DNA of 64,000 nucleotides. It comes from Candidatus Bathyarchaeota archaeon (GTDB taxonomy: Archaea > Thermoproteota > Bathyarchaeia > Bathyarchaeales > Bathycorpusculaceae). How positions within the stretch are numbered: position 1 is the first letter of the stretch; each line of letters starts with the position of its first letter. The notes under the pieces were generated by a model that saw only the letters and a list, made by a program, of their open reading frames with translations, ran no database searches and had not been told where the DNA came from. Below are positions 1 through 56,477 of the stretch, one piece after another. The DNA lies in the NCBI GenBank assembly GCA_963707955.1, contig OY970176.1, positions 1,979,013 through 2,043,012 of the forward strand. Reading direction: 5' to 3'. Both the position numbers and the translations under genes were made by a program.

Positions 1-894
1 CCTCAGAACCTTGCCGCCATACGGCTCCACCATTTTTTCAACACACATCGAAGCCTCAACGTTTGTTACGACGATTCCACCGTTCTTCTCCTTTGTAACG
101 TACGCGGCATAAGCGGCCAGTGCACGGTCAAAGTCTGCCAGATTTCCCTCTTCGTCTATGAAAGCCACTCGGTCACCGTCGCCGTCGTAAGCCACGCCTA
201 AATCTGCGCCCAGCTCCACGACAGTCCTAGCGAAAGGCGCCAAAGACTCCTCGTTTGGTTCAGGGCTTCTGGCTGGAAAAAACCCGTCTGGCTGAGAGTT
301 CAAGGCCGTAACCTTGCAGCCTAAAGATGCTAGAACTGTCGGGGCCAAGCTGAATGTTGCTCCGCAGCCCGAATCCACTATCAGATGCCGTTTCTTGCGA
401 AGTTTCACGGCATTGCGAATCATTTCAACGTACAGGCGCGACTGGTCTTCGGATTGAGTGTCGCCGATGTCTCGCCAATCTGTCAGATTGAACCTCTTAT
501 CCTCGATGATTTTTTCGATCGCGTTCTCACTCTGCTCACCGTAGGCCATGCTATCACTGTGGAAGATCTTTATGCCATTGTACTGAGGTGGGTTGTGTGA
601 AGCCGTAATCATCACGCCCGCGCCTGCGTCCATTCTGCGAGTTAGAAAAGCCAACACTGGAGTCGGCAGGATTCCCATGTCTTTGACGTTGGCTCCCCCT
701 GACAGAAGGCCAGAAACCAAGGCGTTTGCAAGCATTGCGCCTGAGCTTCTTGTGTCCCGAGCAACAAGCACCTTGCTTGCCTTGGAAAACGCTGCAATAG
801 CCATACCTATCTGGGCTGCCAGGACCGGTGTGAGGTCAACGTTGACCAGGCCACGCACCCCCGAGCTGCCGAACAATCTTGGCAAGCTTTCCAC
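1..894 (-). CDS. phosphohexomutase (phosphoglucosamine/phosphomannomutase family); 3' end runs off the window
   Basis: My minus-strand translation gives LFGSSGVRGLVN near the N-terminus. It also gives the phosphoserine loop GVMITASHNPPQYNGIK (codons from 618 downward). There is no ATG; the start is probably GTG 894 or TTG 885/876. Stop codon at 918-916 upstream. Confidence 0.85.
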   Translation of the reverse strand, partial: MESLPRLFGSSGVRGLVNVDLTPVLAAQIGMAIAAFSKASKVLVARDTRSSGAMLANALVSGLLSGGANVKDMGILPTPVLAFLTRRMDAGAGVMITASHNPPQYNGIKIFHSDSMAYGEQSENAIEKIIEDKRFNLTDWRDIGDTQSEDQSRLYVEMIRNAVKLRKKRHLIVDSGCGATFSLAPTVLASLGCKVTALNSQPDGFFPARSPEPNEESLAPFARTVVELGADLGVAYDGDGDRVAFIDEEGNLADFDRALAAYAAYVTKEKNGGIVVTNVEASMCVEKMVEPYGGKVLR

Positions 895-32622: not shown

Positions 32623-33006
32623 CTACCCGCACAAACATTCAACCATCTTTGTGCAGACCAAGCAAGGTTCCGGAATCGGAGTTCCTTTCTGGCGTTTGTT
32701 CAGATACCCGAAGAAGTGCCCGCACCTGAAGTCGCTCACCGGTTGAGCACCGAGTTCGCTAGATCCTTTCCGTAGAACCTCAGGTCTTCTGTCTTCCTCT
32801 TTCAAGGCTTCGATGCCGTGGATTCTTGTCATGCAATGTGGACATGCCGGGTATGTCTGTACGCTAACGCCTGTTACCACTCTTGCAAGAATTGGTTTCT
32901 GCAAAGCTCTGCCGCACTTGTCACATGTAAGGTCAGCATGGCTTATCGTCTTTGGACAATCATGCTCCAGTTTCCCAGAGCTAATGTCTGTTTGCATCGT
33001 CATCAC
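32623..33006 (-). CDS. Cys-rich zinc-binding protein (two CxxC pairs plus C-terminal CGHFFGYL...CLVCTKMVEC motif)
   Basis: 127-aa ORF. Function unknown. Confidence 0.6.
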   Translation of the reverse strand: MMTMQTDISSGKLEHDCPKTISHADLTCDKCGRALQKPILARVVTGVSVQTYPACPHCMTRIHGIEALKEEDRRPEVLRKGSSELGAQPVSDFRCGHFFGYLNKRQKGTPIPEPCLVCTKMVECLCG

Positions 33007-33547: not shown

Positions 33548-34864
33548 TTAGTTTGCCGTTTTTAGTGGGCAGCCCGCTCCGCATATTTGGAGGCTTGGGC
33601 ATTCGTGGCATTTGTCTGGGGCGTATTCTCGTTTTCGGAGCTTCAGGCAAGTGGGGTTTTTCCAGATTTTTTGCCATTTGTCTTTGAGGATGTTTCCGAG
33701 TGGGACGAAGTAGCTTTGGCAGGGTATGACCGTTCCGTCTGGTTCGATGGCCATGTTTATGCGGCAGGCGCTGCAGCTTTTTATTCCCAGTTCCAGCTTC
33801 AGAGGGTCGGTTTCGCAGTATTCCGTCGGGGTGTACCACGTGAATTCCATTCCTAGATTTCTGGTCTCATTCTTTATTCGGGTCAGGATCGGCTCTAGTG
33901 CTGCTTCGTCTAACGCGAAGGTTTTGGCTATTTCTGGTGCTTTCCCAGAGTAGATCAGGCTGTTGCAGGCGAAGTGTTTGAGTCCGAGGTTGTGGACGAA
34001 TTCTATCGTGGCGTCTATGTCATTGACGTTTAGCTGGTTGAGTGTGGTGTTGCTGACCGTGTAGATTGGCGATGCGATGGCGTTTTTGAGTCCTTGGACG
34101 GTTTCGTCCCAGCTGCCGTTGACGCTTGTTATTTTGTCGTGGACTTTTGGGTCGTGTGATTCAAGGGTTATCTGGATGTGGTCTAGTCCTGCGTCGATGA
34201 GGGTTTTGAGGTACGCGCTGTCTTTGAGTTTTCGTCCGTTCGTGACGAGGCCGCAGACCAGCTCTTTTTCTTGCGTGTGCGCTATCAGCGTTGACAGGTC
34301 GTTTCTTAGGGTTGGTTCGCCGCCTGTGAAGACCACTTGGGGGATGCCTAGGGCTTGGAGTCTGTCGATCACGTTCACCCATTCTCGCGTGGTTAGCTCT
34401 TCTGTTTGTTTTGGGCCTCCGGCGTAGCAGTGTATGCACTTGTTGTTGCAGCGGTAGGTGAGGGCTATGTCCATGCGGTAGGGTGCGCTCAGCTCTTTTT
34501 GGAAAGGTTCTATCTTTTCTACGCCGAGGTAGGAGACGGGGCAAACGTCGGGTGTCTTGGCGAAGGAGTTGATGGTGAACAGTGTGTTTTTGATGTCTTT
34601 TCGGGCGGTTTCCGCGTCAACCTTGTAGCGTTTTAGAATTCTCTTTGCTGTCTGTTTTTCGTTTTCTCCTCGTATGAAAGAGTGTACGATTTCGGTGGCT
34701 GTCTGGTTGAGGAAGATGACTCTGGAGGCGTTTATGACTAGAACTCCTTCTCCGTTTTTCTCTAATCGTAGATGGAGTCTGAGACCGCGGTATTCGCCCT
34801 CTGCGACTTTGAGGTGGTGCAGCACCTCTCTGGGTTTTGCTCTTAACTTGTCAAGTACATTCAA
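33548..34864 (-). CDS. radical SAM/SPASM-domain enzyme with N-terminal PqqD/RRE-like domain
   Basis: CNNKCIHC (CxxxCxxC). C-terminal Cys clusters CSACRINMAIEPDGTVIPC and CHECPSLQICGAGC. The N-terminal ~90 aa (VLVINASRVIFLNQTATEIVHSF...) is PqqD-like. TTG start abuts the upstream TAG. Confidence 0.85.
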   Translation of the reverse strand: MNVLDKLRAKPREVLHHLKVAEGEYRGLRLHLRLEKNGEGVLVINASRVIFLNQTATEIVHSFIRGENEKQTAKRILKRYKVDAETARKDIKNTLFTINSFAKTPDVCPVSYLGVEKIEPFQKELSAPYRMDIALTYRCNNKCIHCYAGGPKQTEELTTREWVNVIDRLQALGIPQVVFTGGEPTLRNDLSTLIAHTQEKELVCGLVTNGRKLKDSAYLKTLIDAGLDHIQITLESHDPKVHDKITSVNGSWDETVQGLKNAIASPIYTVSNTTLNQLNVNDIDATIEFVHNLGLKHFACNSLIYSGKAPEIAKTFALDEAALEPILTRIKNETRNLGMEFTWYTPTEYCETDPLKLELGIKSCSACRINMAIEPDGTVIPCQSYFVPLGNILKDKWQKIWKNPTCLKLRKREYAPDKCHECPSLQICGAGCPLKTAN

Positions 34865-36517
34865 CTATCTTGCACCTCCGCCGGCGCAGGCACAAGCGCA
34901 ACCTACGCAGGCACAGGCGCATGCGCAGGCGTGGCATGCGCATACGCAGGATGGTTTTCCGCCTACTGGCTGCTGGCTTGGGGCAGACTTGAAAGGCACG
35001 AGTTTGTTGGCGAAGTCTTGAACGTTTTTGACGATGTTGTTTGAGGCTGTCTGGAGTCCTCGTACGATGTTGTTGGCGAAGTCTTGGCCCGGGATCGGTT
35101 TGGCTTGGACAGGTGGGGCCGTTGGTGTTGTGACTGGCGTTGGGGGGCTTTGTTGTCCCGTCGATGCGTGTAGGCCGCCCCAGTACCACCACCAAGCTGG
35201 GTTTGGATAAATGATTATTCCTGGTGGGAAGGCTGTTCTGAAGCGGTCTTCGAATTTGTCGTCTGCCAGTAGCCACTCGAGGTTTTTGTCGACGGCGTCG
35301 CCCTTGAGTTCTGGGGTTCCAGCCTGGGTTACCTGGGTCCAGGCTTTGTCTACTATGGACTTGTAGTAGTTGGTTGTGTCGTCTCTTGAGTAGCCGCGTA
35401 GCTTTTGGTCTACCGTATTGGTGAGTTCTACGTAGGTGCTGGCGAGCTTCTGCTCGTCGAGGGTTCCGTCTGGTCTTATGGCGTTCAGGTAATCTGTTTC
35501 GTAGTATCTTGGTAGTGGAGGCGACTGGCCTTGGGCTGGTTCGAGTTCGGTGAGTTTTATGAGGGGTTCAGTTTCGGTGACGGCGACCATGCGCTTTAGG
35601 AGAAGCCCGTAGAGAATCATGGTGAGGACGCGGACGGGCTTTTGATCCAAAACGAGGGCTGCCTCGACAGCCGTGAGTGTTCGGTTGGCGCCCAAGGCTT
35701 CGATCGACATGCGGGGTGTTGCGTAAGCCATTCTGGCAATTCTTGTAAAGTACAAGATTATCGCGGCGGCCACTATGAGAAAGACTAAGACCAATGAAGC
35801 CGTGGTTGTTATGTCTGGAAATGGCCCAGGGGTCGGGGTCGGCGCGGAGGAAACGTACGTGGCTGGGAAAGAAACGCCAGAAGTGAATTGTTGGCTTGGC
35901 GGCCAGTTTGTTCTCTCCCAGAAGACGGCGGTGTCGTTGTTCGTTTCTGTGAAGACATTGTCGAAGGGTGAGCTTGGGGGGTATTTCACTTCGGTTTTTT
36001 GTACGCCTGGTGGGAGGATGATTTCCACGCGTAGGTCTGTTATGAAGCCGCTTGCGGTGGAGAACGTTGTTTGGTAGAAGAGCAGGTCGACGTTTCCCGG
36101 GTTAGTGGTGTCCGCATGGATCATGTTTGGAACCAGAGCGTAAACAACGAATGTGTAGGGCTGGTTCAGCGCAACGGGTTGTTTGAGGTAAACGTCGATG
36201 CCGTAGAAGCTTCCCGATGACGCGCTTTGATATTGAAGTGTGGCCCCCGACAGGTCTTGCACATACTGAATTTGGAAGCCTCCTTGGGGCATTCCCACAG
36301 TGAATATGCCTTGAGGCGAGCCGGAGAGATACGTGAAGGTTATGTTGTACAGAATGTATATCGACCTGTCCGTGTTGATCTGGATCTGGGCCCACTCTTG
36401 GCTTACGGAGTAGGTTACACCCTGAGCCCTTGCAAGTTGAGCCTTTGTCAGCAATAATCCGAGGCACAAGATCAGTACGATGACGGACAAACCGGCGAGC
36501 TGCTGTTTCGTCACCAT
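34865..36517 (-). CDS. DUF2207-like membrane protein ending in a (Cys-X)n tail
   Basis: ATG 36517 gives MVTKQQLAGLSVIVLILCLGLLL. N-terminal domain, central TM TASLVLVFLIVAAAIILYF, and a long C-terminal region. The last 27 aa are CVCACHACACACACVGCACACAGGGAR. Confidence 0.75.
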   Translation of the reverse strand: MVTKQQLAGLSVIVLILCLGLLLTKAQLARAQGVTYSVSQEWAQIQINTDRSIYILYNITFTYLSGSPQGIFTVGMPQGGFQIQYVQDLSGATLQYQSASSGSFYGIDVYLKQPVALNQPYTFVVYALVPNMIHADTTNPGNVDLLFYQTTFSTASGFITDLRVEIILPPGVQKTEVKYPPSSPFDNVFTETNNDTAVFWERTNWPPSQQFTSGVSFPATYVSSAPTPTPGPFPDITTTASLVLVFLIVAAAIILYFTRIARMAYATPRMSIEALGANRTLTAVEAALVLDQKPVRVLTMILYGLLLKRMVAVTETEPLIKLTELEPAQGQSPPLPRYYETDYLNAIRPDGTLDEQKLASTYVELTNTVDQKLRGYSRDDTTNYYKSIVDKAWTQVTQAGTPELKGDAVDKNLEWLLADDKFEDRFRTAFPPGIIIYPNPAWWWYWGGLHASTGQQSPPTPVTTPTAPPVQAKPIPGQDFANNIVRGLQTASNNIVKNVQDFANKLVPFKSAPSQQPVGGKPSCVCACHACACACACVGCACACAGGGAR

Positions 36518-36903
36518 GTTGGTTCCTCTGTGAGTTCGAACTTGTTTCCGCAGTGGCCGCACGTGACGAAGGGTTTTCCGTCAAGAACTTCAGTCTTGGT
36601 CGCGTCGATCAGAGCTCCGCAGTTTGGGCAACGTATTTCTTTAGCCTCTAACGGTCCAGTGACCGTTACGGTTTGCTTAATCTCTATAGGTTTTTTCTCC
36701 AGGCCAAGGAAAATCAGGAATCCAGCGACCGCGAGGAAGACCAGGCCCACAAGAAAGTAAACAAGGCCAAGGTTAACTGAGACAACGAAGACGAGGCCCA
36801 AGAAGATCAGAACTGCCGACGCCAAGTAGATGGCAGCTCTAAGTATCCCCAGAGCCATAGCGCGTTGCGCGCGCCCGTACTCGCGTTTGGTTGCAGGGGA
36901 CAT
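36511..36903 (-). CDS. three-TM membrane protein with C-terminal zinc ribbon
   Basis: CPNCG...CGHCG. Its stop overlaps the ATG of the next gene. Confidence 0.7.
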   Translation of the reverse strand: MSPATKREYGRAQRAMALGILRAAIYLASAVLIFLGLVFVVSVNLGLVYFLVGLVFLAVAGFLIFLGLEKKPIEIKQTVTVTGPLEAKEIRCPNCGALIDATKTEVLDGKPFVTCGHCGNKFELTEEPTW

Positions 36904-36963: not shown

Positions 36964-37064
36964 TGGGCCCGCCCGGACTCGAACCGGGGATCTTCGCCGC
37001 TTCCTCAGGCGCGTGCTAATCAGCCTTGTGAGGGCGACGTCCTACCAAACTAGACTACGAGCCC
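36964..37064 (-). tRNA. tRNA-Val(CAC): tRNA-Val (anticodon CAC) with ~27-nt intron 3' of the anticodon
   Basis: Hand-folded: GGGCTCG/CGGGCCC acceptor, D arm GTCT..GGAC, anticodon stem TCGCC/GGCGA with loop CTCACA+intron, T arm CCCGG TTCGAGT CCGGG. No encoded CCA. Confidence 0.85.
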
Positions 37065-37527: not shown

Positions 37528-37633
37528 GCCGAGGTAGCTCAGCCTGGGAGAGCGCTCGTCTCGTTGTCTCTCAACAGCGAGGGCGAAGCTGAAGACCGAG
37601 TCGTCGCCGGTTCAAACCCGGCCCTCGGCACCA
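37528..37633 (+). tRNA. tRNA-Phe(GAA): tRNA-Phe (anticodon GAA) with a 29-nt non-canonical intron inside the anticodon stem; CCA encoded
   Basis: Removing 37559-37587 gives GCCGAGG TA GCTC AGCCTGGGA GAGC G CTCGG CTGAAGA CCGAG TCGTC GCCGG TTCAAAC CCGGC CCTCGGC A CCA (74 nt + CCA). Confidence 0.8.
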
Positions 37634-38659: not shown

Positions 38660-39073
38660 ATGCCCCACTGTCTAAAGTGCGGTTCAGAAGTGGATGAGAA
38701 AATGGTCTTCTGCCCTAAATGTGGCGCACCGCTGAGGATGGAACAGCCTGCGGACCTGAGAGATGAGTGGAGGACAAAACGGAGGGAATGGAGGGAGCAG
38801 AGAAGAGAGCAAAGAAGACAGAGAAGACAGGGTGAGAAAAGCGAAAAGGAGGAAAAGTGGGAGAGAACAGAGAAGCATGAGTACATGTTCTTGGGGCCGC
38901 TCATCGGTGGACTGGTGCTCATAATATTCGGAGCTTTTCTCTACTTCTTAATAGTCGGAGGCTTCAGCGTACAGCTCCTAGGTGCGCTCTTCCTCGTCTT
39001 CGTCGGAGTGATAATCATAGTTGCCGCCTTGTACTCCATCGTTGTAGCAGAAAGAAGACACCGGAGACCTTAG
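38660..39073 (+). CDS. zinc-ribbon protein with charged linker and two C-terminal TM helices
   Basis: CLKCG...CPKCG, an R/E/Q-rich linker, then hydrophobic helices. Confidence 0.7.
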   Translation: MPHCLKCGSEVDEKMVFCPKCGAPLRMEQPADLRDEWRTKRREWREQRREQRRQRRQGEKSEKEEKWERTEKHEYMFLGPLIGGLVLIIFGAFLYFLIVGGFSVQLLGALFLVFVGVIIIVAALYSIVVAERRHRRP

Positions 39074-41405: not shown

Positions 41406-41483
41406 GCGGGCGTAGTCTAGTTTGGTCTAGGACATCAGCCTGCCACGCTGACGACCCGGGTTCAAATCTCGGCGCCCGCACCA
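41406..41483 (+). tRNA. tRNA-Gly(GCC): tRNA-Gly (anticodon GCC), CCA encoded
   Basis: GCGGGCG TA GTCT..GGAC A TCAGC CTGCCAC GCTGA CGAC CCGGG TTCAAAT CTCGG CGCCCGC A CCA. Confidence 0.9.
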
Positions 41484-47976: not shown

Positions 47977-48089
47977 AGAAAGCGGAGATATCTCCCGAAG
48001 ACCCTACTTTTGGTAGGATTTCGGATTGACATATCATATCGCCAAAAGAACAAAGTGAGGACAGACACTTAAAAAGAATATGTCGAAAG

Positions 48090-48112
48090 GGTACTGGTGC
48101 GTTAAGGGACAT
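48090..48112. repeat. left terminal inverted repeat GGTACTGGTGCGTTAAGGGACAT
   Basis: Reverse complement of 51161-51183 except at positions 2-3. Confidence 0.85.
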
Positions 48113-48173
48113 AACGATGGCTCATTAAACATAGATATATCTCAAAAGCATCGTATAGTAGTGGAGCATTGCA

Positions 48174-49331
48174 ATGAGTCTCCAAAGAATAAAAGATTCC
48201 CAAACAACATTAACTCTGATTGTTGCCACAGTTTTGTTTGCTCCAGCCGAGGTTGTTCTGTTTTATGCGGGAATACTTGTATCAACAAACTGGTCGACTA
48301 TGAATGGTCAAACAACTCAGATATTTGTGCTAAGAGACTATGGAGTTTGGTATCTGGCAGGTTGGTCAATTTTGCCAATTCTCTATTGTATAATTGCATC
48401 TCTCTATTTCTCACCAAAAAGAATTGTTTCGCCCTTAAATACGCAGATTTTTGCTTGGTTAATACTGTCTGTAGTCGAGTTTCTACACGAATACGACACG
48501 CTTTATTCGTATTACAATTACTACACTCACACACCTCCACCAGTTGCCCAAATAAACACAATGATTTCAACATGGGCTTCCAATTCGTTTGCTTTATTCT
48601 TCATCTTTGTTTTTGCTGGTCTCGGTCAACTGCTTATGGTTCGATTGATGGTGGGTCCTAATTTGATTGGTGTATGGCGAAAAACGTACGCTGTTAATGC
48701 AAAATGCGAGGTTCTTGATAGCGTTCTTTGTGAATTAGAAGATTACAGAAGACACGAAGAGGATGACGGTCTTATCGTTTATAAAATGCCTACAGGATTT
48801 GTTGATAAGGTTCTTATGGTTCTTGGTCCTGATCCGAGAAACAAGGATCATTCCCTTCTTGCAACTGTAGCTTACCATTCTGGAGTTTACTCCTATGAAC
48901 AAAGCGATGAATCAGCAGTTAAGAGAAATAGAACAATCTTTGAAATAGAGGGTAGATTACGGCATGCAGATTCTCCCGCCACTATAGAAGAGTTGAAAGA
49001 AGAATTGTATGATCCTGCAACAGCAAGAGCGTATGATTTAGCAATTAAGCCAACTCGGACACCGTTCAAAAGAATGGAAAAACTTGTTTCTCAAATTCCA
49101 CCCTTCTACAAATGGTTCATGGCTATAACATCCGTTCTAATTGTGCTGGTTCAGGTAGCTTATTTCACATCCTACTTCCATATTGATACGAATACATGGA
49201 TAAGCACAACTGTGCTTTTGCTCTTTGCCTTTTTTGCAGAAGCAGCGATACCTTTGAGGGATGAGATTCAAGCTCGATTGAAAGAACGATTAAGAAAAGA
49301 AGCGAGTGCTGATAAAGAGGGCAAGCCTTAA
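48174..49331 (+). CDS. transposon cargo: membrane protein (4 N-terminal and 2 C-terminal TM helices around a soluble domain), unknown function
   Basis: 385-aa ORF inside the element. Confidence 0.65.
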   Translation: MSLQRIKDSQTTLTLIVATVLFAPAEVVLFYAGILVSTNWSTMNGQTTQIFVLRDYGVWYLAGWSILPILYCIIASLYFSPKRIVSPLNTQIFAWLILSVVEFLHEYDTLYSYYNYYTHTPPPVAQINTMISTWASNSFALFFIFVFAGLGQLLMVRLMVGPNLIGVWRKTYAVNAKCEVLDSVLCELEDYRRHEEDDGLIVYKMPTGFVDKVLMVLGPDPRNKDHSLLATVAYHSGVYSYEQSDESAVKRNRTIFEIEGRLRHADSPATIEELKEELYDPATARAYDLAIKPTRTPFKRMEKLVSQIPPFYKWFMAITSVLIVLVQVAYFTSYFHIDTNTWISTTVLLLFAFFAEAAIPLRDEIQARLKERLRKEASADKEGKP

Positions 49332-49354
49332 ATACTAAATATGGCTTATAGGAT

Positions 49355-50260
49355 ATGTATAGGAGCGTAATAGGAATGAAATGCAAATACTGCGACTCCG
49401 AGAAAGTCGTGAAGGCTGGTATGAAGGGCAATAAGCAGAGATACCTCTGCAACGATTGTGGTCACAAGTTTGTTGAAGGTTCAGATTTTCCGAGAATGAG
49501 AACCGAGGCACGCATCATATCTTCTAGCATTGACTTTTATTTTGAAGGATTAAGCACTAGAAAGATTCAGACTCAGATTGAGAAACTCTATGGCGTTCAT
49601 GTTGACCATTCAACAGTGTTAAGGTGGATCTTGAAATACTCTAACCTAGTCTCTCAGTATGTCGAAACACTAACGCCTCAGTTGCTAGGTATCTATCACG
49701 TTGACGAAACAGTGATTAAGTGTAAGGGTGTTCAAAAGTGGTTCTGGGAAATTATTGACGACCAGACTAAATTCCTAGTTGCTGGTCACTTGTCAGGTTC
49801 AAGAACAGCCGAAGATGCAATCACTCTTTTTGAGAAAAGCATCAGAGTAGCTAAGAAGAAACCAACTTCAATTTACTGTGATGGGTTGCCTTCTTACGTG
49901 GATGGTTACAACAAGGTTTTCAGAACCATGCGAAAGGACACAAGACCAGAGTTGATAAGGAAAGTTGGCATCAGAGCAGTTCATAATCAGAACGTAGTCG
50001 AAAGATTACACAGTACTTTGAAGGATAGGATAAAACCAACCAGAGGCTTGAAAGGAGAAAACACTGTTAGAACTTTGCTCGAAGGATGGGTTGTCCACTA
50101 CAACTATGTGCGAAAGCATCAGACTTTGAAGATGACTCCTGCACAAGCTTCTGGTCTAAACGTGAAGAATGACTGGTACACTTTGGTTAAGGATGCAACG
50201 AAGAATGAGACGAAGAAAGAGGAAAAGCAAGTTCCGCAAATTGAGGTGACTGTAAAATGA
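49355..50260 (+). CDS. DDE transposase with N-terminal zinc finger (IS6-like; IS1-like not excluded)
   Basis: CKYCDS...QRYLCNDCGHKF zinc finger. DDE candidates: HVDET, IYCDGLPSY, NVVERLHSTLKDR (E plus K at +7). Confidence 0.85.
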   Translation: MYRSVIGMKCKYCDSEKVVKAGMKGNKQRYLCNDCGHKFVEGSDFPRMRTEARIISSSIDFYFEGLSTRKIQTQIEKLYGVHVDHSTVLRWILKYSNLVSQYVETLTPQLLGIYHVDETVIKCKGVQKWFWEIIDDQTKFLVAGHLSGSRTAEDAITLFEKSIRVAKKKPTSIYCDGLPSYVDGYNKVFRTMRKDTRPELIRKVGIRAVHNQNVVERLHSTLKDRIKPTRGLKGENTVRTLLEGWVVHYNYVRKHQTLKMTPAQASGLNVKNDWYTLVKDATKNETKKEEKQVPQIEVTVK

Positions 50261-50412
50261 AGAAGATTCTTGTTAGCCTTCCAGAAGGTATATTCAAGAT
50301 TGTCAAAGAATTGAAAGGACAGCTTGGAGACAGCGATTCTGAGGTTGTTCGCACTATGGTGATAAGTTTCCTCAGTGAGAAAGGATACTTGGCTAAGAGG
50401 GAGAATGAATGA
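50257..50412 (+). CDS. ribbon-helix-helix (CopG/Arc-like) protein, 51 aa
   Basis: Below the ORF-track cutoff. ATGA overlap with the transposase stop. MKKILVSLPEGIFKIVKELKGQLGDSDSEVVRTMVISFL. Confidence 0.6.
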   Translation: MKKILVSLPEGIFKIVKELKGQLGDSDSEVVRTMVISFLSEKGYLAKRENE

Positions 50413-50603
50413 GTAAACGCAAGAAAGACCGCATTAAAGAACTGGCTTTGGAACTTGATATAGTTGATCACATGATTGCTGCGTTGGTGGATGTTTTAGA
50501 AAAGAAGGGTATTTTGACCTCTGCAGAATGGGAAAAAGAGGTAAAGTTGAAGGTTGAAAAAGCAGCAAAGACAACGCAAAGTTTCAGGGAGATAGAATCT
50601 TAG
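50409..50603 (+). CDS. small helical protein (64 aa), unknown function
   Basis: ATGA overlap with the RHH gene stop. Confidence 0.5.
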   Translation: MSKRKKDRIKELALELDIVDHMIAALVDVLEKKGILTSAEWEKEVKLKVEKAAKTTQSFREIES

Positions 50604-50604
50604 A

Positions 50605-51111
50605 TTGCAAACCAAAAGCCACGACAGTTTGCATGAAACAATAGTAGCGAAAACTTTGCCTAGATTTGTTGAAAGGCTAAAGAAAGAAAGGCTTGTCTCT
50701 GATTACAATAGAGACAGTTTCCATGTTGAAATAAAGCATTTCAATGAAACTCATATGTTCAACATAAAACCCGATTTGGTTTTAGTTTTACCTGACAAAG
50801 CGAAGTTTCTAATCGAGGTAGTCAACCCCAGAGACCCGAAAAGATTACTAGGCGAGATTGTCTATCTTCAAATTCTTGGTTCTCGAAGGCTCATTGATAA
50901 TGGAATAATCTTCCTACTCCCACTAGGGTCTGAACACCCAACAGCACCCATGAAAGGTTTGAGACTTTCATTCACATCACTCGCTACTGGTCTGGAGCAA
51001 ATCGTTTCTACAAAGATTCCGTGTGATATAGCCTCATGGTCAACGACTGAGGAAAACAACTACGTCAATTTGAGAGGCTCTATTATATATCGTCCTAAGT
51101 TGCACTTATAG
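50605..51111 (+). CDS. hypothetical protein, weak PD-(D/E)xK-nuclease-like pattern
   Basis: HETIV...KPDLVLVLPDKAKFLIEVVNPRD. TTG start 1 nt after the previous stop. Confidence 0.5.
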   Translation: MQTKSHDSLHETIVAKTLPRFVERLKKERLVSDYNRDSFHVEIKHFNETHMFNIKPDLVLVLPDKAKFLIEVVNPRDPKRLLGEIVYLQILGSRRLIDNGIIFLLPLGSEHPTAPMKGLRLSFTSLATGLEQIVSTKIPCDIASWSTTEENNYVNLRGSIIYRPKLHL

Positions 51112-51160
51112 GAGAAGTTTGCATGAGCGAACAAAAAACGAATCCACCTAATATTCTCCC

Positions 51161-51183
51161 ATGTCCCTTAACGCACCAGTTTC
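51161..51183. repeat. right terminal inverted repeat ATGTCCCTTAACGCACCAGTTTC
   Basis: Pairs with 48090-48112. It creates the artefactual twin MSLNAPV ORFs in the track. Confidence 0.85.
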
Positions 51184-51357
51184 TGTCGAAAGCGTAGAAC
51201 ATGGAAACGGTAAAATCAACTGGTCAAACTGGCTTAAAAAACATATTACTAGACTGTCCAAGAGGAGAATACACTTTATCCAAACTACATCTTGGAACGG
51301 TTTGCAAGTTGAAGTCGAGTTAATAAACGGGCTCCTCAGAATAGTCAATAGACACTC

Positions 51358-52185
51358 ATGACCAATCTGATTTCAGTTTCTAGTGCACCTATCGCTGGGT
51401 TTGGGGACAAGGAATACTACGACCTTCTGGGCACGATTGAAGTGATGAAAAAAGTCTCTGAAGAGGTTGTGGTTGATGGTTTTGAGTTGCAACTTGAACC
51501 AGAATGGGACTGCGAAAATGCACCATTAACCGATGCTGACTGGGCTGATTGGACTAAGACTCCCAAATTTACTTTTGAAGAAGTTGTGGAACTAATCAAA
51601 AGTGAGGGTCTACCAATCCTTTCTGTTCATGCGAGCAGGGATGTCGGAAGTTATCTCTGCTCTGAGAAGGAAAGAGATTGGGAGAAGGGAAAGCGTGTCA
51701 TTTATGGTGCATTGTCAGTTGCTGAAGGATTGGGAGCGGAGGTTTGTGTATTTCATCTTTGGGACACTTGGAAAAGCAGTTTCGATTTGCGAAATGTCGA
51801 GAACATTTTTCTGAAGACAGCGGAACAGTTTCCAAAGGTTAAAGCTTCGGTTGAAAATATCCCAACACATCTAGAAGGTTATTCTCCGTTCATGTTGGTT
51901 GGGTCTGCCAATTATGTGACTTTAGACTTGAGATGGGCAACTATGTATAAGGAGCTTGACGCTTTCGAGTCGATAATTAACGGTATTGTGAATGTTCATC
52001 TGCGAGGGAGTCTGAAGGAGAGTAAATGGGTTCTAGAGCGTTCAGACTTTGATTTCTATGAAGCCTTGAACAAAATAAGAAAGGAATGGAAATATTCAGG
52101 ATTGCTCACAGTCGAGCCTGAAGGTAGAATAGACGGGTCATTGTTTGAAAGCTTCCTAGAAGCGATGCACACCTTGAAGACGTAG
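51358..52185 (+). CDS. xylose isomerase-like TIM-barrel protein (sugar phosphate isomerase/epimerase family)
   Basis: Pattern LSVHA...VCVFHLW...ASVENIP...VHLRG...TVEPEG, typical of the AP_endonuc_2 fold. Confidence 0.65.
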   Translation: MTNLISVSSAPIAGFGDKEYYDLLGTIEVMKKVSEEVVVDGFELQLEPEWDCENAPLTDADWADWTKTPKFTFEEVVELIKSEGLPILSVHASRDVGSYLCSEKERDWEKGKRVIYGALSVAEGLGAEVCVFHLWDTWKSSFDLRNVENIFLKTAEQFPKVKASVENIPTHLEGYSPFMLVGSANYVTLDLRWATMYKELDAFESIINGIVNVHLRGSLKESKWVLERSDFDFYEALNKIRKEWKYSGLLTVEPEGRIDGSLFESFLEAMHTLKT

Positions 52186-52200
52186 ATTCCTATTTGTTCA

Positions 52201-52230
52201 GCTATAACTTTTCCGCAAAACCAAAAACTG
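52201..52230. repeat. intergenic module copy A (GCTATAACTTTTCCGCAAAACCAAAAACTG)
   Basis: Starts 8 nt beyond the GNAT-1 stop (minus strand). Confidence 0.8.
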
Positions 52231-52237
52231 GCTTTCT

Positions 52238-52774
52238 TCAAGCTTTCTTAGTCAGTATCTTTGGTTCTTTCCATTCTTCTCTCAGGATACTGTAGATATA
52301 GGAATCTACCCATTCTCCTCTCATGAAAAAGCTTTTACGAAGTGTTCCTTCCTTCTTAAACCCAACTTTCTCTAAGAGTTTGTTAGAGGCTACATTTCTT
52401 GGGTCAGTTTGGGCTTGAATACGCATTGTGTCTTTTGAGAGAAACAAGTAATCCACCATTAACTGTGTAGCTTCGGTACAGTACCCTTTTCCCCTCTCAC
52501 TTGGCACTAAGCTATAGCCTATTTCTAGTTGCTTGCCCGCAACATGTAGGACATAAAAATGACCTATGAAACCAATTTTGCTTCCGTCCTTTTTCTCTAT
52601 GATGAATGACTTCTCTTCATGAGGGTTCTCAAACATTTTTTCTGCTTCTGTTCTGGACACCTGATGTAGAGGATTGTATTCACCAAAGACCTCAGGCTTG
52701 TTGAACCATTCTGCAATTAGTGGCAAATCCTCTTTCTCCATAATCCTCAAATTCACATTTTTACCTTCAAGCAA
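52238..52774 (-). CDS. GNAT family N-acetyltransferase (RimJ/RimL-like), paralogue 1
   Basis: 178 aa. LEIGYSLVPSERGKGYCTEA acetyl-CoA region. Confidence 0.85.
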   Translation of the reverse strand: MLEGKNVNLRIMEKEDLPLIAEWFNKPEVFGEYNPLHQVSRTEAEKMFENPHEEKSFIIEKKDGSKIGFIGHFYVLHVAGKQLEIGYSLVPSERGKGYCTEATQLMVDYLFLSKDTMRIQAQTDPRNVASNKLLEKVGFKKEGTLRKSFFMRGEWVDSYIYSILREEWKEPKILTKKA

Positions 52775-52809
52775 GTTAACTCACCAACCCAACATTTCAA
52801 GTCGATTCG

Positions 52810-52839
52810 GCTATAACTTTTCCGCAAAACCAAAAACTG
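52810..52839. repeat. intergenic module copy B
   Basis: Identical 30-mer between the two GNAT genes. Confidence 0.8.
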
Positions 52840-52846
52840 ATTATCT

Positions 52847-53383
52847 TCAAGCGGTTTTTGTCAATATCTTCGGTCCTTCCCATTCTTCTCTGAGAATGCT
52901 GAAGAGGAACATATCTGTCCATTCTCCTCTGCAGAAGTAGCACTTTCGCATTGTTCCTTCTCTCTTAAACCCAGCCTTTTCCAGAATCTTCTGGGAAATC
53001 ACATTCTTGGTGTGAGTCGTTGCTACTATTCGAGGAATGTCCTTTGAAAGGAAAAGATAGTCCACCATTAGCTGTGCAGCTTCAGTGGAATAGCCTTTTC
53101 CTCTCTCACTTGGAACGAGACCATAGGCAAGTTCTACCATACTCATATAAGTATTAAGAAAGTTGAAATGCATAATCCAACCAATTTTGCTTCCGTCTTT
53201 CTTCTCAATGATAAAATGCTTCGTTTCGAAAACGGTACTCTCCAAGAACTTCTCCATCCCTGCCCTAGTACCCTGTGTTGGAGAGAAATATTCAGCAAAG
53301 TCTGGGTTATTCCACCAGTCCACAAGAAACGGCACATCCTCTTTCTCTGCAACCCTCAAATTCACATTCTTGCCTTCAAGCAA
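52847..53383 (-). CDS. GNAT family N-acetyltransferase, paralogue 2
   Basis: 178 aa, collinear with paralogue 1 (MLEGKNVNLR...ILTKxA). Confidence 0.85.
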   Translation of the reverse strand: MLEGKNVNLRVAEKEDVPFLVDWWNNPDFAEYFSPTQGTRAGMEKFLESTVFETKHFIIEKKDGSKIGWIMHFNFLNTYMSMVELAYGLVPSERGKGYSTEAAQLMVDYLFLSKDIPRIVATTHTKNVISQKILEKAGFKREGTMRKCYFCRGEWTDMFLFSILREEWEGPKILTKTA

Positions 53384-53418
53384 ACCTGACCACCAATCTA
53401 GGTGTTTAAGTCGGTTCA

Positions 53419-53440
53419 GCTATAACTTTTCCGCAAAACC
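53419..53440. repeat. intergenic module copy C (first 22 nt conserved)
   Basis: GCTATAACTTTTCCGCAAAACC, then divergent. Confidence 0.75.
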
Positions 53441-53452
53441 GGTCCCAACATG

Positions 53453-53893
53453 CTAAAGGCTTCCTATGTAGGTGTAGGTTCTTGGCACGCTCATTGCTTT
53501 GAGTGTTGTGTAGCGACAGTAACCATCAACGAGTTGATAGTCTTCCTTTCGTATAATCAAAGGTGAGAGAACTACTGCCCCCGCTTCCATGTTGTGTCGA
53601 AGTTCTGCACTTCTCTTCTCAAGGCTCTTTGAAAAAACATAGCCCCTCTCAGGGTCCACGTAGTTCATAATATCGGGGTCTAGCTTTATTCGGGTTATAT
53701 CCATTATTTTCAGATGCCATTTGCGTCTTGCAAGAGTCGTCAGCCACGGGTCATCTTTTGGGTCTCTATGTTCACTTCTGGCATCTGCTTCCCACTCTTT
53801 TAGAATTTCAGAGTTGACGAAATCGTATATTGCATCAAGGTCGTCAATCACCCAGTAGCTTATCCCTTCAAGTCTCCGAATAGGCGTGTTCAA
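53453..53893 (-). CDS. hypothetical protein with ParB/Srx-like C-terminal motif
   Basis: PLIIRKEDYQLVDGYCRY resembles the ParB-like nuclease-domain DGxHR block. This is weak. Confidence 0.5.
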   Translation of the reverse strand: MNTPIRRLEGISYWVIDDLDAIYDFVNSEILKEWEADARSEHRDPKDDPWLTTLARRKWHLKIMDITRIKLDPDIMNYVDPERGYVFSKSLEKRSAELRHNMEAGAVVLSPLIIRKEDYQLVDGYCRYTTLKAMSVPRTYTYIGSL

Positions 53894-53949
53894 GACATCT
53901 CGCCGTCTAGGTTCTTTGCGTTGTTCTTATTTGAAGTATCTGAAATTTG

Positions 53950-53979
53950 GCTATGACTTTTCTGCAAAACCAAAAACTG
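53950..53979. repeat. intergenic module copy D (2 mismatches)
   Basis: GCTATGACTTTTCTGCAAAACCAAAAACTG. Confidence 0.75.
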
Positions 53980-54070
53980 TGTCTGTCTGCGTGCGTGGGC
54001 TGTGTGTTTTTTTGTTTTTGTTTGTTTGTGTCAAGGTGTAGAAAGTAAGAGAGATAATTAATAGTAATAA
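53965..54070 (-). ncRNA. candidate G-depleted (C/A/U-rich) small RNA, copy 1
   Basis: Promoter-like GGGTAAACTTTTATC (minus reading of 54093-54107). About 105 nt with a single G on the minus strand across 54001-54092. Ends at the oligo-T run of module D. Confidence 0.3.
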
Positions 54071-54346
54071 GAGAAGTGAAGAAGAAGAAAAAGATAAAAG
54101 TTTACCCTCCCACACACAACAACGTTGGTTCGTGGCTTTCTGGGTTGCCTCGCTGGTCGCGAGGTGCCTGCAACCCAATAGGCTCAGCCAATACAGAGAC
54201 AACAGCAATGGCATTACTACCTTACAATAATGAAGTTATTTCTAGGATACAAAATCTAACTGAACTGTAGAGATTTAACACAAGAAGAGTTGTAGTTATC
54301 TGGAATTAAGAAAAAAGAAGGGAGGGTTAGTTTTGGAGGTTTGAGG

Positions 54347-54664
54347 CTATTTGCCCTTTAGAATTTTCATGGCTTCTTCCATGGTCGGGAAAACCAATTT
54401 GACTTCGGTTGTCTCGGTTGCCATTAATGCCATAACTTCTGGTTCCATACTGGCTTTTTGGAAAGCTTCTAAATTTGGGGCTTCCATTATGAAGACGCTC
54501 AGATGTTCTGTCTCGACACTCCCACCCCAAAGCATCTTTACTTTGTACTTCTTCGATATTTTGTCCATGCTGCTCAACCAATCCAGGTAGACCTTTCTTG
54601 TCTTTTCATGTACCAAAGGGCAGTTTTCGGGCGCATGCCTTGAAAGCACTAAGAATGTAGGCAT
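54347..54664 (-). CDS. small hypothetical protein (about 105 aa)
   Basis: ATG 54664 (MPTFLVLSRHAPENCP...) with GGAG 11 nt upstream and TTTTATAT about 45 nt upstream. The listed TTG 54679 start is less likely. Confidence 0.6.
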   Translation of the reverse strand: MPTFLVLSRHAPENCPLVHEKTRKVYLDWLSSMDKISKKYKVKMLWGGSVETEHLSVFIMEAPNLEAFQKASMEPEVMALMATETTEVKLVFPTMEEAMKILKGK

Positions 54665-54729
54665 ATTAACACGCTCCAAACTATCTTTTTTGCACGAACA
54701 ATATAAAAGACTTTGCTCGGAAGTTTACA

Positions 54730-54829
54730 ACAAATAAAAGTGTGTGTGTTATGTGTGTTTGTTGTGTGTGAAGAGAGACTAAGTAAGTATAGTAGAGTGA
54801 GTTAGGGAGTCGTAGTAGTAGAGCAAGGG
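54730..54829 (-). ncRNA. candidate G-depleted small RNA, copy 2
   Basis: Promoter-like GGGGTAAAGTTTTATC (54851-54866). 3 G on the minus strand across 54741-54850. Shares a TCTCTCTT...ACACAAACA CA-repeat layout with copy 1. T-rich end at 54728-54742. Confidence 0.3.
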
Positions 54830-54969
54830 TTTTGGTGTTTTGGGTTTTGGGATAAAACTTTACCCCCCAAACCCAAACCCAAAAAAAACACACAAAACCC
54901 ATGTGAGAAATGCAGAACTGTTATAACAAGAAAAAAATAGGGAGTAGATAGTATGGTTCGAGTAGCGGG

Positions 54970-55470
54970 TTAGCTTGTTGTGATCGACCACTCGCATGGG
55001 ATTTTTCCTGTTTTCGCCGTGGCTTTCCATCCCAACAGTTTTGCTGTGTCCACGACTGATGAAGCACAGAATTCGCACAGTGGTGTTCCAGGACCTCCAA
55101 CGCCAATTTTTGATGCCCCACATGTGGTTGCTTGAAGAACAACCTTCCTGGGCGACTCTTCAAGAACTTTTATGTCGTTGCCTACGATCTGAAAGAATGT
55201 GCGAGCATAGTTCAGAGCCTTTAATGCTCCCTCTCCTGGCGTTTGTTTCCACACATCCGAGTTAACAGAATCCTTCGCGAAAGCAGCAAAGAATTTCTTA
55301 ACCCCTTCGTCACCATAATTGCTTCTGATGAAGGCTATGGCACTTATCATTCCCACGTTGCCGAAAGACCTGGCGCCTGCAAGTTTCTCCTCTAAAGAAA
55401 GAGCTTTGCCCATATTCATCTCCTCACCCTCTACCATCTCTAGTTTCCACTTATAACATTTTGTATTCAA
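54970..55470 (-). CDS. hypothetical protein
   Basis: 166-aa ORF. An internal ATG (MNMGKALS) is possibly the true start. Confidence 0.5.
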   Translation of the reverse strand: MNTKCYKWKLEMVEGEEMNMGKALSLEEKLAGARSFGNVGMISAIAFIRSNYGDEGVKKFFAAFAKDSVNSDVWKQTPGEGALKALNYARTFFQIVGNDIKVLEESPRKVVLQATTCGASKIGVGGPGTPLCEFCASSVVDTAKLLGWKATAKTGKIPCEWSITTS

Positions 55471-55754
55471 CTAGAAGCATTAGTTTGGTAGTAATTTGGC
55501 ACAACAACTCTGGGAATCCAATTTTCCCTTTCATTTCTCAAATATTTGGCAAACAGTAAAGCGCGCGCTGTTGATCTTTCTAGTCAATCGTGATTTCACG
55601 GGCGGAGGAATATTGACTTCAGTGGGCATCGTGCTTGCACTGCTGGCACGCAAGCTTGAGCATCTGAAGGTCAGAACAGAGTTATTTGAGATCGAAGTTC
55701 AGCTCAACTAGAGTTATGTGGTCGGTTTATCACGCCTGAGCTCTCAACCGCACG

Positions 55755-56477
55755 TCAATTCGAATCCATTGTCATTATTTCGTCGTAATTCTGGTATAGC
55801 ATTCTGTCAAATTCTATTCCCAAGATTCCAAGGGGTTTACAGACTTCTGTTAGAATGTCACTTTCAATCATGTCATAGGACTCGGGGGCACTTTCAAAGC
55901 CCTTTGGGGTTTTAATTCCTATTTTGTTCAGCACATTTCGTACTCGAACATCGAAGGCTATTGCGTTTTTCAGGAGGCCAAGTTCCATCAAGAAGTCTCT
56001 GGCGCTTTTGCTTTTCAGAAACTGGAGTTCACTCATCAAACATTCTATTCTTTTCTTGTCAGCATCGGGTCCATTGAGTTCAGATAGTATCTTTATGAAT
56101 ATCTTCGGGCCTCCTTTGTTCTGTAACGCTTTTAGATTATGTACCAACGCTCCAGTTTTCCTACACTTTGAGATAGAAGAGCTGGCATAGCGTGTTCCAA
56201 CTTTGCGCAGAACGCGATTTATTGTCCTCGCTTGATCAGCTTCTCGCATTTTGATGAGCTTTTCGTAAGCAACTTCATTTTGGAGCCGAGCATCCTTTTC
56301 GAATTTCTGAGCGGGAAGTGAATTGCCTACAGTGATTACCTGAGCAACCAAGTGCCACCAAACGTCATCGTCGTTCCAATCTTGCCAGTTATCCGCGGCA
56401 GGAACCTTTGTGTTGTTGTAGAAACGATCTTTTATCTCTTTGAACTTTCCTATCTGTTCCTGACTGATACGCAGCAT
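55755..56477 (-). CDS. hypothetical protein, weak HhH-type DNA glycosylase-like pattern
   Basis: FLKSKSARDFLMELGLLKNAIAFDVRVRNVL resembles the HhH-GPD helix-hairpin-helix/Asp region. Not verified. Confidence 0.55.
   Translation of the reverse strand: MLRISQEQIGKFKEIKDRFYNNTKVPAADNWQDWNDDDVWWHLVAQVITVGNSLPAQKFEKDARLQNEVAYEKLIKMREADQARTINRVLRKVGTRYASSSISKCRKTGALVHNLKALQNKGGPKIFIKILSELNGPDADKKRIECLMSELQFLKSKSARDFLMELGLLKNAIAFDVRVRNVLNKIGIKTPKGFESAPESYDMIESDILTEVCKPLGILGIEFDRMLYQNYDEIMTMDSN

Follow-up and report, generated by a model that had tools for sequence, protein, structure and literature searches.

The three-gene cassette described here lies on the minus strand of a 64,000-nucleotide stretch of a Candidatus Bathyarchaeota archaeon genome (contig OY970176.1, positions 1,979,013 to 2,043,012), hereafter the window, in whose numbering all positions are given. 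It consists of gene 1 (36511..36903), which encodes a small membrane protein of 130 aa with a zinc ribbon; gene 2 (34865..36517), which encodes a membrane protein of 550 aa, counted from its ATG, with a (Cys-Ala)n tail; and gene 3 (33548..34864), which starts at a TTG and encodes an enzyme of 438 aa. The latter combines a PqqD-like recognition element (RRE) of the kind found with peptides synthesized on ribosomes and modified after translation (RiPPs), a radical S-adenosylmethionine (SAM) core and a SPASM domain. An earlier note on this DNA, made from the sequence alone, had described three minus-strand genes packed without gaps, and the open reading frame (ORF) coordinates were as given there. 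Direct reading of the junctions agreed with its further description, as the gene 2 ATG overlaps the end of gene 1 with 7 nt shared, within ...ACATGGTGA, and the gene 3 TTG immediately follows the gene 2 TAG. An alternative GTG start for gene 2 at 36562 would give 565 aa; the ATG is favored because homologues begin with MV.

A large membrane protein with a (Cys-X)n end had been noticed beside the radical SAM gene, and gene 2 indeed terminates in CVCACHACACACACVGCACACAGGGAR. The Cys core and closing GGGAR (34868..34948, residues 524-550, minus strand) contain the core CVCACHACACACACVGCACACA with 10 Cys, and the window contains a single copy of the underlying (CA)3GG DNA pattern, where 0 would be expected. 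Gene 2 has at least 676 homologues at 90% clustering, and all 120 of the closest (52-97% identical overall) share the near-invariant end CVCAC[HA]xCACACACV[SG]CACACA[GH]GG[AG][RH]. At 75 species-level loci no substitution affects the Cys, Ala and Val positions, whereas their codons vary over the two for Cys, the four for Ala and the four for Val; this argues for purifying selection on the tail at the protein level; with every synonymous codon in use at these loci, a DNA-level repeat or artefact was rejected as an explanation. Mean column conservation is highest in the Cys core (0.95, as compared with about 0.5-0.6 for gene 2 overall). It amounts to 0.70-0.76 in the globular domains, 0.45 in the linker at residues 448-473, 0.80 in a pair of helices at residues 474-509 and 0.51 in the spacer that follows (residues 510-523). 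This leader-like helical pair (34991..35098, minus strand; QDFANNIVRGLQ..NVQDFANKLVP) was placed at residues 477-495 and 499-509 by AlphaFold2 (AF2). Read from the alignment, the C-terminal order of linker, conserved helical segment, spacer and invariant core is that of a RiPP precursor fused to a membrane protein.

Gene 2 matched no family in Pfam or NCBIfam, and its domain structure was taken from an AF2 model (m088f756f0889; 114 homologues, mean predicted local distance difference test score (pLDDT) of 77). All on the minus strand, a signal or transmembrane (TM) segment (residues 1-33; modeled helix 3-25) is followed by an extracytoplasmic beta-sandwich (35852..36418, residues 34-222, modeled at 35-218 with pLDDT >90), a central TM helix (35738..35812, residues 236-260; hydropathy segment 232-265) and a presumed cytoplasmic domain (35177..35737, residues 261-447; column conservation 0.76). 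The last of these holds a winged-helix-like unit and a helical bundle (residues 283-429) as well as a WWWYW motif, and leads into a disordered Pro/Thr linker (residues 450-469). The basic residues TRIARMAYATPRMS stand directly after the central helix, and in the hydropathy analysis the hydrophobicity of the WWWYW segment is too low for a TM helix; from these two features we infer that the tail most likely lies on the cytoplasmic side. Foldseek matched the model to ribophorin I/OST1 (8b6l_O, 2.9e-9), with a TM-score of 0.27 and 12-14% identity for fold matches, and also to the N-domain of M1 aminopeptidases. DUF2207 (PF09972 / PF20990), a search for which was among the checks suggested in the earlier note, did not emerge from Pfam for gene 2 at E<=0.1. 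A distant Methanocella relative (P0315) reaches 23.9 bits against a cut-off of 24.4 for the DUF2207 N-domain, over the whole profile, and one Methanocella member goes under DUF2207 in UniRef and under oligosaccharyltransferase (OST) subunit 1 in RefSeq. The RefSeq name of the Methanocella sp. CWC-04 tail protein (WP_230741659.1) is 'dolichyl-diphosphooligosaccharide--protein glycosyltransferase subunit 1'. Going by the model, gene 2 would be a single-pass membrane protein with a ribophorin-I/DUF2207-like beta-sandwich outside, a winged-helix/helical domain in the cytoplasm and a precursor-like module at its C-terminus.

The three domains proposed for gene 3 were all recovered above their Pfam cut-offs. 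The PqqD/RRE-like domain (34556..34822, residues ~15-103, minus strand) matched PF05402 at residues 46-94 (26.6 bits, cut-off 23.4), the radical SAM core (33995..34462, residues 135-290, minus strand) with its CNNKCIHC at residues 139-146 matched PF04055 (1.4e-26; 94 bits, cut-off 29.5), and the SPASM domain (33569..33775, residues 364-432, minus strand), the proposed site of auxiliary Cys clusters, matched PF13186 (3.4e-11; 43.7 bits, cut-off 21.5). In an AF2 model built from 56 orthologues (pLDDT 65), four strands (15-52) followed by three helices (54-103) form the RRE fold, after which comes the TIM-barrel core, and on alignment and model together the N-terminal domain is a putative peptide-binding RRE. 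C139, C143 and C146 are invariant in the 56 orthologues, and ten cysteines beyond these three are invariant or nearly so. The SPASM cysteines are arranged as C364-x2-C367-x9-G-x4-C382 ... C419-x2-C422-x5-C428-x3-C432, and C300, C350 and C406 are conserved too.

A sequence search of the PDB with gene 3 returned SkfB as best match (1.9e-21), then PqqE (1.1e-17) and SuiB, and included a weak match to GDGT-MAS. Foldseek ranked SkfB (5.4e-12, 402 columns) and SuiB (5.9e-11, 442 columns) at the top and also matched CteB; SkfB, SuiB and CteB are RRE-bearing RiPP maturases. In NCBIfam, gene 3 stayed under the cut-off of every curated equivalog, with 141 bits for NirJ2 (cut-off 500), 131.6 for PqqE (TIGR02109; 381), 123 for AhbD (500), 116 for AhbC (650), 107.8 for MftC (TIGR03962; 265), 95 for SkfB (300), 69.2 for the ACGX radical SAM enzyme (TIGR04340; 400) and 64 for the tungsten-cofactor maturase (380). 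The radical SAM models for heme and heme d1 (NirJ, NirJ1/2, AhbC, AhbD) gave 104-141 bits against cut-offs of 500-650; unlike gene 3, enzymes of these families have no RRE. By its sequence and predicted fold, gene 3 is an orphan member of the RRE-radical SAM-SPASM peptide-maturase architecture. A defense system of the prokaryotic viperin type was also considered and rejected, as the PADLOC pVip models matched only the core of gene 3 (135-298) and left genes 1 and 2 unmatched.

Linkage of the three genes was followed across genomes. When each GTDB species was scanned through one genome, 331 genomes proved to contain relatives; the best 80 loci, almost all from Bathyarchaeia, were analyzed. Wherever the contig allowed, these loci showed the order gene 1, gene 2, radical SAM gene on one strand. 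At loci with the tail of the window (type A), the radical SAM gene adjoins the tail gene in 71 of 73 evaluable cases, the other two having a split radical SAM ORF, and a gene 1 homologue stands directly upstream of gene 2 in 74/74. The reverse look-up gave the same picture, as three of three radical SAM orthologues on contigs absent from the first list have gene 1 and a Cys-tailed gene 2 immediately upstream. Most type-A loci have 0-3 nt between the gene 2 stop and the radical SAM start. The in-frame TAG-TTG of the window raised the possibility of a gene 2-radical SAM fusion made by stop read-through, which was rejected because TAA, TAG and TGA all serve as the stop at orthologous junctions and the two genes stand in every possible frame to each other; this variation points to translational coupling of the two genes, not to read-through.

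All-against-all clustering of the flanking ORFs at the 80 loci revealed no fourth conserved gene. A HAD hydrolase, a GIY-YIG protein and RpiA were tried as cassette members and dismissed as lineage-specific housekeeping neighbors. The cassette loci hold no conserved small ORF, in keeping with the earlier remark that no small Cys-rich precursor ORF lies nearby, and across 160 loci no protease, transporter/exporter or further tailoring enzyme is conserved beside the cassette. No pqq, mft, tetrapyrrole/heme, lipid or dehydrogenase genes are in synteny with it either. That the radical SAM enzyme stands outside the known cofactor pathways agrees with curated equivalog scores far under cut-off and with genes 1 and 2 as its sole conserved neighbors. 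Synteny of the cassette is strict across more than 150 loci from Archaea and Bacteria.

A profile search of 1.84 billion representatives, counted as 50%-identity clusters, produced 770 matches at E<=1e-3, with 266 at E<=1e-30. Across these 770 divergent representatives the Cys cores contain 3-10 Cys, all with the CACACA-GGG end. In addition to type A with 10 Cys, we distinguished type B, a Gly-rich spacer plus CACACACAGCACACAGGGR (7 Cys), type C, GGGGCACACACACAGGGR (5 Cys), type D, CACACACVSCACACACAGGGGCT (9 Cys), and a minimal tail, CACACAGGGR, seen in one representative (3 Cys); Pfam and NCBIfam contain no family for any tail type. The tail is hydrophobic on the Kyte-Doolittle scale, but a TM anchor was rejected as its function because type B and C cores have only 10-15 residues and come after poly-Gly. 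In two divergent representatives (P0262 and P0276) the Cys core is internal and is followed by GGGF/GGGGI and ~85 residues of an unrelated sequence that is similar between the two; the core is thus not always at the extreme C-terminus.

A metagenome scan supplied 80 type-B loci, of which 52 were evaluable for the radical SAM gene and 67 for gene 1. The radical SAM gene is downstream on the same strand in 46/52 and nearby on the opposite strand in 2/52, and gene 1 is present in 62/67. Type-B loci are bacterial, with LigA, bacterial-type GltX and RlmI genes at their flanks, and a member with a named source belongs to a Deltaproteobacteria/Candidatus Zymogenus metagenome-assembled genome (MAG). 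At ~30 type-B loci a radical SAM paralogue of ~385 aa directly follows the radical SAM gene (for example L149:9139-10296, L146:3784-4929 and L097:7705-8895). It has an RRE/PqqD-like N-terminus and a barrel, no CxxxCxxC and no SPASM cysteines, and 0-1 Cys in total; judged by these features, it looks like a catalytically dead pseudo-radical SAM protein and is possibly a peptide-binding partner. The archaeal cassette of the window is without it.

Type D is hosted by Methanocellales, among them M. paludicola SANAE, M. conradii and Methanocella sp. MCL-LM, all three in culture, and other 10-Cys variants were found in Thermoprotei/Thermofilum MAGs. Tails of the cultured Methanocella species have the form CAC..CACACACAGGGGCT with the radical SAM gene adjacent, and 3/3 genomes show the order small TM protein, tail protein, radical SAM/SPASM gene. 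Here, the small protein is a different 2-TM protein with a winged-helix-like domain in place of the zinc ribbon. The tie between Cys-X tails and a radical SAM neighbor thus held in the bathyarchaeial set (71/73 plus the two split ORFs), the bacterial set (48/52 within 6 kb), Methanocella (3/3) and the reverse look-up (3/3). In all three Methanocella genomes (L161-L163) an AIRS/AIRS_C gene of the PurM/HypE/SelD/ThiL superfamily is found 1-2 genes upstream of the cassette. Only one of them, L161 (M. paludicola AP011532.1, around 2.68 Mb), has AglB/STT3 and sugar-nucleotide genes just downstream. Together with the RefSeq name and the fold shared with ribophorin I, this AglB neighbor suggested a link to N-glycosylation; the link found no support, since AglB occurs near 1 of ~166 loci and is absent from the window.

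Gene 1 had been described as a 3-TM protein, which we revise. Hydropathy gave a single 57-aa hydrophobic stretch at residues ~15-71 and bacterial homologues have two helices with a loop between them, so that gene 1 reads as a 2-TM protein, predicted to be N-in/C-in with its zinc ribbon in the cytoplasm. The C-terminal zinc ribbon itself was confirmed as a C4 type (CPNC...CGHC) with zinc-ribbon matches in Pfam and NCBIfam, and Pfam also gave a weak DUF2207_C match. The C-terminus ELTEEPTW (36511-36534) is conserved, recurring in archaeal and bacterial gene 1 proteins (L146, L149, L164-L166) as the terminal motif (F/Y)(E/Q)LTEEP(T/K/L)W-stop; the Methanocella proteins are without the motif. Such conservation at the very end of the protein could reflect docking or a second site of modification. 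In the membrane, gene 1 probably acts as a partner of gene 2.

The proposal of the earlier note that the tail is the substrate of the radical SAM enzyme is supported by comparative genomics, with chemistry and role remaining matters of inference. We consider it probable, at roughly 0.6, that gene 3 modifies the tail on the full-length membrane protein and that the cassette is self-contained and translationally coupled. Gene 3 would dock via its N-terminal RRE on the leader-like segment 474-509, and 5'-deoxyadenosyl radical chemistry, together with two SPASM auxiliary clusters, would then modify the Cys/Ala core. The core would stay attached to full-length gene 2 at the cytoplasmic face of the membrane, without cleavage of a product. 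The modification may consist of Cys thioether cross-links of the sactionine or ranthionine type, with the invariant Ala/Val accepting S at C-alpha or C-beta, and would make of a flexible tail a prosthetic structure that is rigid, cross-linked or able to bind metal.

By analogy, thioether cross-linking appears the likeliest chemistry, at odds well short of even. Radical SAM-SPASM enzymes form Cys thioethers in peptides and, in the case of QhpD, within a protein subunit (PMC10114670). Thioethers are favored here because known RRE-radical SAM-SPASM/Twitch enzymes carry out this chemistry on Cys-rich cores, and QhpD does so inside a protein subunit; because SkfB is the closest solved relative of gene 3; and because the Ala/Val residues of the spacers are as invariant as the Cys, as expected of acceptors. 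In its most specific form, which we offer tentatively, this would be a thioether ladder (possibly lanthionine-like, Cys-S-C-beta-Ala) or a metallo-thiolate centre templated by thioethers, carried on the cytoplasmic tail of this ribophorin-I/DUF2207-like protein and serving a housekeeping membrane function in anaerobic Archaea and Bacteria; such archaeal hosts are Bathyarchaeia, Methanocellales and other Thermoproteota.

Several observations weigh against tail modification by gene 3 or against the chemistry suggested for it. Four of the 52 evaluable type-B loci (L084, L116, L119 and L123) have an intact CACACACAGCACACAGGGR tail and no radical SAM gene within ~6 kb on either side; three of the four are also without gene 1. 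Gene 3 scores about equally against the NirJ2, PqqE, AhbD and sactisynthase models of NCBIfam, so its sequence points to no single chemistry. Residues 510-550 of gene 2, including the tail, are disordered in the AF2 model, and the topology of gene 2 is based on simple hydropathy and charge arguments plus that model. To our knowledge, a core of Cys, Ala, Val and Gly only has no counterpart among sacti- and ranthipeptides, and a Cys number of 3-10 is also compatible with a metal-thiolate site.

The tail could alternatively be a metallothionein-like metal or Fe-S site, for which the radical SAM/SPASM protein would be a dedicated partner or cluster-assembly factor, or it could feed Cys ligands or sulfur to the auxiliary clusters. 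Ten Cys in CxC runs with CxxC junctions (CHAC, CVGC), a number that varies between 3 and 10 among subfamilies as in metal-thiolate proteins, and hosts that all belong, where identified, to lineages generally known as anaerobes are in line with such a site. In related enzymes a substrate Cys is known to ligate SPASM auxiliary cluster I. Direct interactions between substrate and auxiliary cluster have been reported (PMC10177961). However, simple metal binding does not need spacer Ala/Val to be fixed to the same degree as the Cys, gene 3 combines an RRE with a complete radical SAM site, an architecture known for covalent peptide modification, and genes for metal transporters or chaperones are not in synteny, so that we regard a plain metal site as rather unlikely. 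A released product is less likely again: gene 2 would then be a giant precursor with its 520-aa body as membrane-bound leader or scaffold, from which the modified Cys-rich peptide would be cleaved, to be set free or exported as a small RiPP-like product or cofactor. The C-terminal layout of linker, leader-like segment, spacer and core would fit, as would the presence of PqqE and MftC among the best NCBIfam matches of gene 3. PQQ and mycofactocin are peptide-derived cofactors made with related radical SAM-SPASM enzymes, and large-leader precursors occur in other RiPP classes. Yet none of the genes that cutting, exporting or tailoring would call for is conserved at the 160 loci, the gene 2 body is conserved at 0.70-0.76 per domain and includes an extracytoplasmic domain, which would be superfluous for a mere leader, and in two lineages the core is internal with ~85 residues after it.

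We give the least weight to a substrate other than the tail, namely a lipid, a tetrapyrrole-like cofactor or the gene 1 C-terminus ELTEEPTW, with the tail as a low-complexity feature of a DUF2207-like protein; this seems very doubtful. Proteins of the DUF2207 type often have Gly-rich low-complexity ends, archaeal lipid-modifying enzymes are radical SAM proteins (GDGT-MAS being the weak PDB match), the LTEEP[KT]W end of gene 1 is conserved in types A and B, and NirJ2, PqqE and AhbD gave the best NCBIfam scores. Those scores are nevertheless 3-5 fold under the cut-offs, synteny does not extend to genes for heme, lipids or PQQ, and the N-terminal RRE argues for a peptide. In Methanocella, an unrelated protein stands in for gene 1, but tail and radical SAM gene persist, and the conservation of the tail is far too high for a low-complexity spacer.

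The nearest relatives in architecture are the sacti- and ranthipeptide maturases (AlbA, SkfB, CteB, PapB), which resemble gene 3 in their RRE, their radical SAM core and an auxiliary-cluster domain at the C-terminus, and whose systems share with the cassette a Cys-rich candidate substrate after a conserved leader-like segment. In those systems the precursor is small and stand-alone, whereas here its place would be taken by the end of a conserved membrane protein of 550 aa. The cassette further differs in its lack of a protease or exporter, its place among housekeeping genes, its (Cys-Ala)n core and the distance of the curated maturase models from their cut-offs. ACGX (TIGR04340) is, going by the family name, a radical SAM/SPASM system with a small-residue/Cys repeat as its target; the cassette has a CA repeat, not ACGX, and a large membrane protein as candidate target. 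anSMEs have no RRE and act on a single Cys/Ser in the C/S-x-P/A-x-R motif of sulfatases. Like the enzyme proposed here, they are radical SAM-SPASM proteins that act on Cys of a full-length protein (PMC10114670). The cassette contains no sulfatase or such motif, and anSME was outside the 25 best NCBIfam matches of gene 3. The closest conceptual precedent is QhpD/QhpC, in which the radical SAM-SPASM enzyme puts Cys thioethers in a retained functional subunit and not in a released product (PMC10114670). QhpC, a soluble subunit of small size (~10 kDa), has Cys-Asp/Glu links and is encoded in a dehydrogenase operon, whereas the candidate substrate here is a membrane-protein tail without acidic acceptor residues and without dehydrogenase genes nearby.

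Gene 2 shares with DUF2207 proteins and ribophorin I (OST1) the layout of a beta-sandwich outside, a TM helix and a cytoplasmic helical domain. Ribophorin I is an oligosaccharyltransferase subunit, for which an STT3/AglB partner would be expected; in the case of gene 2 the likeness is one of fold only. We know of no Cys-Ala tail or radical SAM partner as a feature of DUF2207 or ribophorin I. A search of the literature library found nothing on this system, on ACGX, on DUF2207 combined with radical SAM, or on CACACAGGG. The novelty thus concerns RiPP-type radical SAM maturation on a conserved membrane-protein tail and a new core motif; the maturase architecture is known.

Around the cassette, a tRNA identified with Rfam at 36964-37064 (minus strand, 101 nt, 55.5 bits), presumably intron-containing, lies on the same strand as gene 1 and 61 nt upstream of it, and marks the upstream boundary. 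A second, presumably also intron-containing, is found at 37528-37630 (plus strand, 103 nt, 46.7 bits); ARAGORN missed both and reported only a tRNA-Gly at 41406. Just downstream of gene 3 and on the same strand, a Cys-rich ORF of 127 aa (32623-33006) has a double zinc-ribbon-like pattern (CDKCG..CPHC..CGHFFGYL..CLVC..C); it was rejected as a fourth cassette gene, being beside the cassette in 0/80 related genomes. A 137-aa ORF at 38660-39073 (plus strand) carries a zinc ribbon (PF13240, 6e-8) at its N-terminus, TM helices with a weak DUF2207_C match (1.7e-4) at its C-terminus, and a linker rich in Glu and Arg in between; its parts are those of gene 1 in reversed order. At 48001-56000 the G+C content is 0.40-0.42 as compared with ~0.49 in the rest of the window, and the segment may be foreign or distinct in some other way.

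Radical SAM/SPASM enzymes that contain an RRE are nearly always taken to make small peptides for secretion, and the (Cys-Ala)n-GGGR motif has no characterized counterpart. The system is distributed over hundreds of species (331 genomes in one scan, 770 clusters) in both prokaryotic domains, and it is flanked by housekeeping genes, not set in biosynthetic islands. It is open to direct testing, as the cultured M. paludicola, M. conradii and Methanocella sp. MCL-LM carry it. If our reading is true, genome mining that requires a short precursor ORF overlooks a whole class of radical SAM substrates, and the cassette would provide a first functional handle on a DUF2207/ribophorin-I-like family. It would also represent a new class of post-translational modification, installed on full-length proteins and belonging to no natural-product pathway.

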